Positions 3,743 to 4,422 of a stretch of DNA of 15,907 nucleotides are shown here, in pieces. Every line of letters starts with the position of its first letter. Positions within the stretch are counted from its first letter, which is position 1. This DNA is from Escherichia coli. Its GTDB lineage: Bacteria; Pseudomonadota; Gammaproteobacteria; Enterobacterales; Enterobacteriaceae. The notes under the pieces were generated by a model, which was not told the origin of the DNA, did no database searches, and saw nothing but the letters and a program-made list of their open reading frames with translations. Location of the stretch: NCBI RefSeq assembly GCF_003334335.1, contig NZ_QOWQ01000058.1; one strand, given 5' to 3'. Both the position numbers and the translations under genes were made by a program.

Positions 3743-4422
3743 TCATGACTGTGCTGCAAAGCTCAGCGCGTCTTCCAGCGCCGCAAACGGATCCACCTCC
3801 GGCTTATCCTCATCCTCGCCCCAGCAGAGCATGGCGTCCTTCAGTGCAACATTCATCCCCTGTGCCCCAAAAACCGCTTTCACGATCTGTGCATTACGGA
3901 TATCCCCGCGCTCATCACCCAGCGGGGATACCCTGTCGAACTCCATCCACATCATCGCCTCGCTCGCACTCAGGCTGTGCTGCAGTTCGGATAAGGTGCG
4001 CCCCAGACGGAGCGCAAGTCGCATCAGAAAGCGAATTTCCGGGCGGGCTACTTTTTTCTGGCCGACTCTGCATCAGCGATCAGTTCCAGTGCCTGACGCA
4101 GCAACCGGGCATGTACCGGACCATAGACGGCCAGCACCTGCTCACGGTCGTCCGGAGTGAACACCCGTTGCAGATCCGTATCACACAGGACATCGCAGAA
4201 CAGCGTCACATCCGCTTCCAGGTTACGGCGGGTTTTCGCCACCACCGACAGGGTATCGTCATCCTCTCCATCACCATTGAGCACTTCCTGCCACAGATAC
4301 CAGGCCTCTGCCGAAGGCTCCCGCAGCACCACGCTGACATTTCTCCATTCCGGCACCTTCACCGTTTTATGACGGAACCCCGACAGTCTGGCCAGCGCCA
4401 GTGTTTTCAGATCTTTTGCCAT
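3743..4422 (-). CDS. Tail assembly chaperone GT-like fusion, made by programmed -1 frameshift near the end of the G-like ORF
   Basis: Slippery heptamer A_AAA_AAG at minus-strand 4057..4051. The -1 frame continues KKVARPEIRFLMRLALRLGRTL... to a stop at 3743, matching the downstream 93-aa ORF that has no independent start context. Confidence 0.7.
4048..4422 (-). CDS. Tail assembly chaperone (lambda gpG-like), 124 aa
   Basis: ORF between major tail protein and tape measure, ATG at 4422..4420, ending ...ARKK-TAG directly on an A AAA AAG slippery heptamer. Confidence 0.8.
   Translation of the reverse strand: MAKDLKTLALARLSGFRHKTVKVPEWRNVSVVLREPSAEAWYLWQEVLNGDGEDDDTLSVVAKTRRNLEADVTLFCDVLCDTDLQRVFTPDDREQVLAVYGPVHARLLRQALELIADAESARKK
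4051..4057 (-). other. -1 programmed ribosomal frameshift slippery site (A AAA AAG) for G/GT
   Basis: Heptamer read directly; sits at the last codons of the G-like ORF with the T-like ORF open in the -1 frame. Confidence 0.7.

Follow-up and report, generated by a model that had tools for sequence, protein, structure and literature searches.

The frameshift that joins the phage tail genes G and T has been a textbook case since 1993 and 2004, and Xu, Hendrix and Duda reportedly showed in 2004 that a frameshift of the G/GT type is conserved in the tail assembly chaperones of dsDNA phages. In phage lambda, where the genes follow the order V-G-T-H, a -1 shift occurs on a heptamer that ends in A_AAG, close to the 3' end of G. 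Lambda G is the partner that binds the tape measure, and T brings in the major tail protein. G and GT are the only products described; they are absent from virions, and tail assembly requires the two in balance, at a G:GT ratio of 30:1 (PMC5009743). In HK97, the corresponding pair is gp13/gp14, and the GenBank record states that the fusion is "translated due to a -1 frameshift." The 0-frame codons of HK97 at this place, CGG_GAA_AAG, give the non-canonical heptamer G_GAA_AAG, with the stop 5 codons further on.

Two other lines of work are relevant to what follows. The heptamer A_AAA_AAG is among the most shift-prone in Escherichia coli, a host with a single tRNA-Lys (PMC5009743; PMC4066793), and it is the one used by E. 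coli dnaX, which makes gamma and tau by the same logic of tRNA-Lys slippage (PMC5009743). There, an upstream Shine-Dalgarno (SD)-like element and a downstream stem-loop accompany frameshifting of about 50% (PMC3711429). Heptamers without stimulators, studied in another reporter context, reach at most about 10 times a background of 0.055% (PMC4066793). In addition, a 2013 study by Antonov et al. (NAR 41:6514, PMC3711429) used E. coli to assay predicted frameshift cassettes inserted between GST and MBP. Their collection includes a Phage_TAC cluster that they called HK97-like, with reference to Xu et al. (2004) and to Baranov et al. (2006).

Here, we have analysed a window of 15,907 nucleotides of E. 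coli DNA, which is 95-98% identical to E. coli prophages and to Stx1a/Stx2c-converting phages. We conclude with high confidence that it carries the G/GT tail-assembly-chaperone recoding site of a lambdoid prophage related to these converting phages. The features that matter for the argument are the following.

4428..5144, minus strand: major tail protein gene, directly upstream of G (PHROG 158, E 1e-117)
4048..4422, minus strand: gene G, tail assembly chaperone, 124 aa (ORF list, PHROG, Pfam)
4003..4077, minus strand: 75-nt stretch identical to a tested reporter cassette (exact string match by script)
4057..4051, minus strand: slippery heptamer A_AAA_AAG, whose 0-frame AAA and AAG encode Lys123 and Lys124
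4050..4048, minus strand: TAG stop of gene G, adjoining the 3' end of the heptamer
3743..4051, minus strand: T segment, a -1-frame extension from Val125 to Ser226 plus TGA, readable only after the shift
453..3695, minus strand: tape measure protein gene, directly downstream of T (PHROG 339, "tail length tape measure protein," E 0)

The genes of the window are encoded on the minus strand, and the geometry of the site can be read directly. The plus strand at 4048..4059 is ctacttttttct, whose reverse complement gives AGA AAA AAG TAG. The final two sense codons of gene G on the minus strand are AAA (4056..4054) and AAG (4053..4051), and the 124-aa translation of the ORF (4422..4048) ends in ...ADAESARKK*. 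The original prediction had placed A_AAA_AAG at 4051-4057, on the last two codons of G before the TAG, and both the coordinates and the description are exact. It had also set this heptamer apart from G_GGA_AAG of lambda, and rightly so, since the lambda site does read G_GGA_AAG and lies 5 codons before the stop, whereas A_AAA_AAG here abuts the TAG. After the heptamer, the -1 frame translates as KK-VARPEIRFLM... and stays open until the TGA at 3745..3743. The codons read after a slip would be AAA AAA GUA GCC CGC, with 102 more codons before the TGA. Just upstream, another TGA closes the -1 frame, which is open only from 4072, about 7 codons before the G stop, and runs 103 codons to 3743. Hence, a productive shift is possible only within these ~7 codons. 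The sole in-frame X_XXY_YYZ motif of gene G, A_AAA_AAG at 4057..4051, lies inside this permissive stretch. The full GT coding sequence is join(4422..4051, 4051..3743) on the minus strand, and encodes 226 aa.

We compared these observations with what could be expected by chance. Counting both strands, the window contains 6 copies of the string AAAAAAG, where shuffles predict 1.9. Yet, across the 4,536 codons of its 15 genes, read in the shift-prone frame, the site at the end of G is the sole A_AAA_AAG and also the sole canonical in-frame X_XXA_AAG. The chance that a single such site falls within the 7-codon permissive stretch is p ~0.0015. The other minus-strand copies of AAAAAAG (10013..10019, 13204..13210 and 13249..13255) are in the capsid and small terminase genes, and all three are framed AAA_AAA_G rather than the shift-prone A_AAA_AAG.

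The domain content and the gene order agree with this picture. G matches PHROG 344, "tail assembly chaperone" (E 4e-46), and an SD-like AAGG precedes its ATG. In the conceptual GT fusion, G corresponds to Pfam Phage_TAC_1 (PF06222, residues 1-124, E 1.9e-60), and residues 152-222 correspond to Phage_tail_T (PF06223, E 5.6e-18). The T extension matches PHROG 337 (E 7e-42). The profile PHROG 14766 has the fused length, with 224 residues, and aligns with G on positions 1-122 and with T on positions 123-224. No NCBIfam model matched G, T or GT. The pair lies between the genes of the major tail protein and of the tape measure, all on the minus strand. Thus, both the gene order and a -1-frame ORF without a credible start of its own place the locus in the G/GT-type class. 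The remainder of the window encodes a head-tail module, with the small and the large terminase, a fusion of protease and capsid, the portal, connectors, and a minor tail protein.

Several observations in this module, away from G and T, deserve mention. Two adjacent ORFs overlapping by ATGA, 9262..7898 (454 aa) and 7901..6678 (407 aa) on the minus strand, match the N-half (1-451) and the C-half (455-859) of the 859-residue phrog_2271, "portal protein." Either the two ORFs are fused in some relatives, or joined annotations went into the making of the profile. The 645-aa ORF at 9474..11411 on the minus strand joins a protease-like N-terminal part (phrog_80, residues 1-281) to a major head protein (phrog_617, phrog_10). 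It sits between the large terminase and the portal genes, a gene order that is unusual relative to lambda or HK97. Finally, an HNH endonuclease gene (13987..14352, minus strand; phrog_589, E 2e-44) lies just upstream of the small terminase gene, which is the usual arrangement in HK97-like packaging modules.

How does the locus compare with the two best-known systems? The HK97 gp13/gp14 pair shows 60% amino acid identity over the whole GT fusion, with the same Phage_TAC_1 and Phage_tail_T content, the same location between major tail and tape-measure genes, and the same Lys-Val junction. It differs in the heptamer, which is canonical here and directly followed by TAG, and in having a moron gene, gp15, between T and H that is missing here. 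Lambda shares the gene order and the T domain family (PF06223). However, lambda G belongs to Phage_TAC_2 (PF06894, E 8e-61), a family to which GT of this locus has no match, and a BLASTP comparison of this GT with lambda GT found no similarity (E = 3). The original prediction had called the module lambda-like. This is true of the T half, and of the G half it is not, since the latter is of the Phage_TAC_1 type of HK97 gp13. Judged from the protein sequences, "HK97-like G with a lambda-type T domain" is a more exact label.

The frameshift itself has already been measured, on an identical stretch of DNA. The insert tested for GeneTack Phage_TAC cluster 862991913 (frameshift ID 15618692) matches 4003..4077 base for base, and it gave 7% +/- 0.79 frameshifting in a strong-promoter GST-MBP reporter, not in the phage (PMC3711429, Table S2). 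A reporter frameshift assay, which had been suggested as a check of the prediction, has therefore in effect been done. A second member of the cluster, with a G_GGA_AAG_CCG_TAA cassette close to that of Fraca, gave 6% (PMC3711429, Table S2). If the 7% figure holds, the G:GT ratio would be ~13:1 here, against 30:1 in lambda (PMC5009743). Antonov et al. did not go into the mechanism or into any role for the adjacent stop.

The conservation of the site across relatives provides independent evidence. An earlier conservation plot had picked the loci by the motif itself, and the claim of conservation rests instead on 87 loci chosen by a motif of the T protein, independently of the heptamer. Among these, 83 contain AAAAAAGTAG, and they include every locus with at least 67% amino acid identity; the remaining 4 are relatives at 60% identity or less. 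The 83 loci represent 15 distinct versions of the surrounding 100 nt, in which 9 of the 10 positions just upstream of the heptamer vary. In the clade of phi467, the heptamer is part of a run of eight A. At the protein junction, the Lys-Val pair is invariant in an alignment of four GT fusions that are 57-66% identical.

More distant relatives use other motifs at the same junction. It reads G_GGA_AAG_TAG in Salmonella FSL SP-016, G_GGA_AAG_CCG_TAA in Fraca, A_GCA_AAG_TAA in Klebsiella P7641, and G_GAA_AAG, 5 codons before the stop, in HK97 and Aeromonas AsXd-1. Burkholderia phi1026b and Bordetella PHB09 have A_AAA_AAG, 10 codons before the stop, and Burkholderia KS9 has A_AAA_AAA, with a joined CDS annotated in its record. 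In phi467, SP-016 and P7641, the -1 frame opens just 2 codons ahead of the stop, leaving the junction motif as the only place where the shift can occur. A first scan of IMG/VR recovered almost only close relatives, and a second one, with a diverged alignment as query, gave 79 Fraca-like loci. In these, an N_NNA_AAG was always found 0-1 codons from the stop: 47 loci have G_GGA_AAG followed by one codon and TAA, 12 have G_GCA_AAG_TAA, another 12 have A_AAA_AAG_TAA, 6 have G_GAA_AAG, and 1 has A_GCA_AAG_TAA. One divergent, Klebsiella-phage-like relative (L072/L142; IMGVR_UViG_2808606809_000008) shows an apparent 1-nt deletion in G, ~20 nt from its end (...GATCTCATTCGATGCGGAT...), which shifts the body of G into the T frame. 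This may be a sequencing error or the mark of a pseudogene, and we excluded the locus from the evidence.

The position of the stop varies too. It comes directly after AAG in phi467, FSL SP-016, P7641 and 26 of 78 Fraca-like loci, one codon later in the other 52, 5 codons past AAG in HK97 and lambda, and 10 codons past it in the Burkholderia and Bordetella relatives. The near-constant element is the A_AAG lysine codon, 0-1 codons from the stop in most enterobacterial relatives, with A_AAA instead in KS9. The heptamer is thus conserved in close relatives and swapped for other shift-prone motifs in distant ones. Within the family, A_AAA_AAG is a common variant and no oddity.

These results suggest how the site works. 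Most ribosomes would end at the TAG of G and release the 124-aa chaperone, and a few percent would slip back by 1 nt on A_AAA_AAG. The single tRNA-Lys, with anticodon mnm5s2UUU, pairs weakly with AAG and would re-pair with AAA in the -1 frame. The tRNA-Lys in the P site would move from AAA to AAA, so that the pair passes in tandem from AAA_AAG to AAA_AAA. The event is most likely the classical tandem -1 slip of two tRNA-Lys, followed by decoding of GUA. Ribosomes that have slipped would then read GUA (Val) in the place of the stop and add 102 residues containing Phage_tail_T, giving the 226-aa GT. The role of the two products in assembly is inferred from the T domain and the gene order shared with lambda. 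By this analogy, G and the G part of GT would coat the tape-measure protein, the T part would recruit the major tail protein, and a fixed, low GT:G ratio would be needed to make correct tails. The original prediction went further and took the site as confirmation of a functional tail assembly module. That is more than the site can tell: an intact site is consistent with a working module and does not confirm one. The central claim, a programmed -1 shift that joins G to T, is supported by the geometry, the domains, the gene order, the conservation, the HK97 annotation and the published 7%.

Could T be made by other means? The alternative that survives best, and which we nevertheless consider very unlikely, is that T is translated alone, as a 93-aa protein, from the ATG at 4024, the heptamer being incidental. 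Such an ATG does exist in the T frame, 24 nt past the G stop; PGAP annotates from the equivalent ATG a 282-nt CDS, "phage tail assembly protein T," as is also the case in phage 2851 and phi467, and the Pfam T domain (GT residues 152-222) lies entirely downstream of this methionine. However, there is no other start codon in the T frame between 4072 and 4024, and the ATG at 4024 has a weak and badly spaced anti-SD duplex, with -3.5 kcal/mol at a distance of 12 nt, compared with -5.8 for G and -6.6 for H, the tape-measure gene. The region between the G stop and this ATG also behaves as coding sequence: V125, P128, F132 and L133, encoded there, are invariant in the four relatives at 57-66% identity, and the codon differences are synonymous (GCC/GCG/GCA, CGC/CGT/CGG). 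The start of T is itself disputed among annotators, with 93 aa in some records and a 70-aa CDS in that of Lys8385Vzw. Finally, the identical cassette did produce a GST-to-MBP fusion, at 7% (PMC3711429), and separate T is not among the products described for lambda (PMC5009743).

A second alternative, slightly less likely still, accepts the GT protein and changes the route. RNA polymerase could slip on the six A of the heptamer and add one A to some transcripts. A transcript with seven A encodes exactly ...ARKKVARP..., as the ribosomal shift does, which leaves both reporter westerns and mass spectrometry blind to the route. Poly-A sites were regarded as candidates for either route by Antonov et al. 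(PMC3711429), and the run in the phi467-like clade is longer, with its eight A. Against this, efficient slippage in bacteria is documented for about 9 A or T (PMC5009743), or "An, n>7" (PMC3711429), and a run of six is below these lengths. The homologues that carry G_GGA_AAG, G_GAA_AAG or N_GCA_AAG at the same junction have no homopolymer of slippage length and have kept the -1 architecture, and the G_GGA_AAG relative shifts at 6%, almost the 7% of the present cassette (PMC3711429). Hence, we infer that the shift in the native context is ribosomal rather than transcriptional. The weakest alternative, that the heptamer is a chance Lys-Lys end of G with no role in recoding, could draw on the mild excess of AAAAAAG in the window and on C-terminal Lys-Lys being not unusual, but it is effectively refuted by the single in-frame occurrence inside the permissive stretch, the invariant heptamer amid variable flanks, the exchange in relatives for other shift-prone motifs only, and the 7% shift of the identical cassette (PMC3711429).

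The ribosomal shift raises an additional question: what brings it to 7%? Bare heptamers in the other reporter context stay within about 10 times the 0.055% background, and the 7% at the G/T site suggests some help from the local context. We searched for stimulators of the dnaX type, that is, an SD-like element ~10 nt upstream and a stem-loop 5-9 nt downstream. Neither is evident here, where frameshifting is ~7% against the ~50% of dnaX; the two systems also differ in that the dnaX shift shortens the product and the G/T shift lengthens it. Local folds of 90 and 100 nt around the site gave z-scores of -0.64 and -0.85, so that their stability does not exceed that of shuffled sequences. We set aside a hairpin 5 nt 3' of the heptamer, as it is not conserved among relatives. 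Upstream, the best anti-SD duplex has -3.0 kcal/mol, against -7.4 for a dnaX reference sequence, and the SD-like candidates were rejected because their duplexes are weak and their positions inconsistent among relatives. A scan of 3500..4600 for promoters and terminators returned nothing bearing on the frameshift site.

The consensus fold of 8 diverged enterobacterial homologues contains a sole conserved helix, GCGCUCC/GGGGCGC (4016..3997, minus strand), 34 nt downstream of the heptamer. We rejected it as a classical stimulator, because it is too distant and shows no covariation. It is part of a GC-rich hairpin at 3997..4016 of the minus strand, UGCGCUCC-GUCU-GGGGCGCA, which falls within the stretch of T that encodes the conserved LALRxGRT. 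In the 8 enterobacterial relatives this hairpin is almost invariant, including at synonymous positions. It is missing in Burkholderia, Bordetella and lambda.

It is possible, although we hold it to be rather improbable, that the TAG right after the heptamer itself works as part of the frameshift signal, as a "shifty stop." A ribosome with AAG in its P site would have UAG in its A site, and slow termination by RF1 would then give the tRNA-Lys time to slip to AAA. The recurrent presence of a stop 0-1 codons after AAG makes this idea plausible, as do the relatives with the non-canonical N_GCA_AAG_TAA. On the other hand, the relative in which one codon separates AAG from the stop reaches 6% in the reporter, close to the 7% of the present cassette (PMC3711429). 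If true, the mechanism could account for the 7% without any RNA structure, as well as for the production of GT in the N_GCA_AAG_TAA relatives, and it could couple the G:GT ratio to the activity of the host release factor.

The frameshift site is thus real, and it is already known and measured. Its practical value is for annotation, and it has little value as a discovery. A copy of the G-T stretch with at least 90% identity is present in 1,246 of 5,426 complete E. coli genomes. In each of the RefSeq records listed for this search, T is named as a product separate from G. One of them, NZ_CP053731.1 (8951..9232), has a free-standing 93-aa "phage tail assembly protein T" predicted by RefSeq/PGAP, with no G-T join. 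The record of phage Lys8385Vzw (MT225100.1, 9488..9697) has a 70-aa "putative minor tail protein," also without the join. The records of HK97 and KS9 do carry it. Beyond annotation, the series A_AAA_AAG, G_GGA_AAG, G_GAA_AAG and N_GCA_AAG, found at one and the same Lys-Val junction, is a natural data set on the control of the G:GT ratio.

A last observation concerns the short interval between the T stop at 3743 and the start of the tape-measure gene at 3695. At ~3706..3733 of the minus strand there is a terminator-like element, AACCGC-UGAG-GCGGUU followed by a run of U. The hairpin is present in the centroid fold and is not listed by the consensus terminator scan. At the equivalent place, HK97 has annotated putative terminators, which flank its moron gene.
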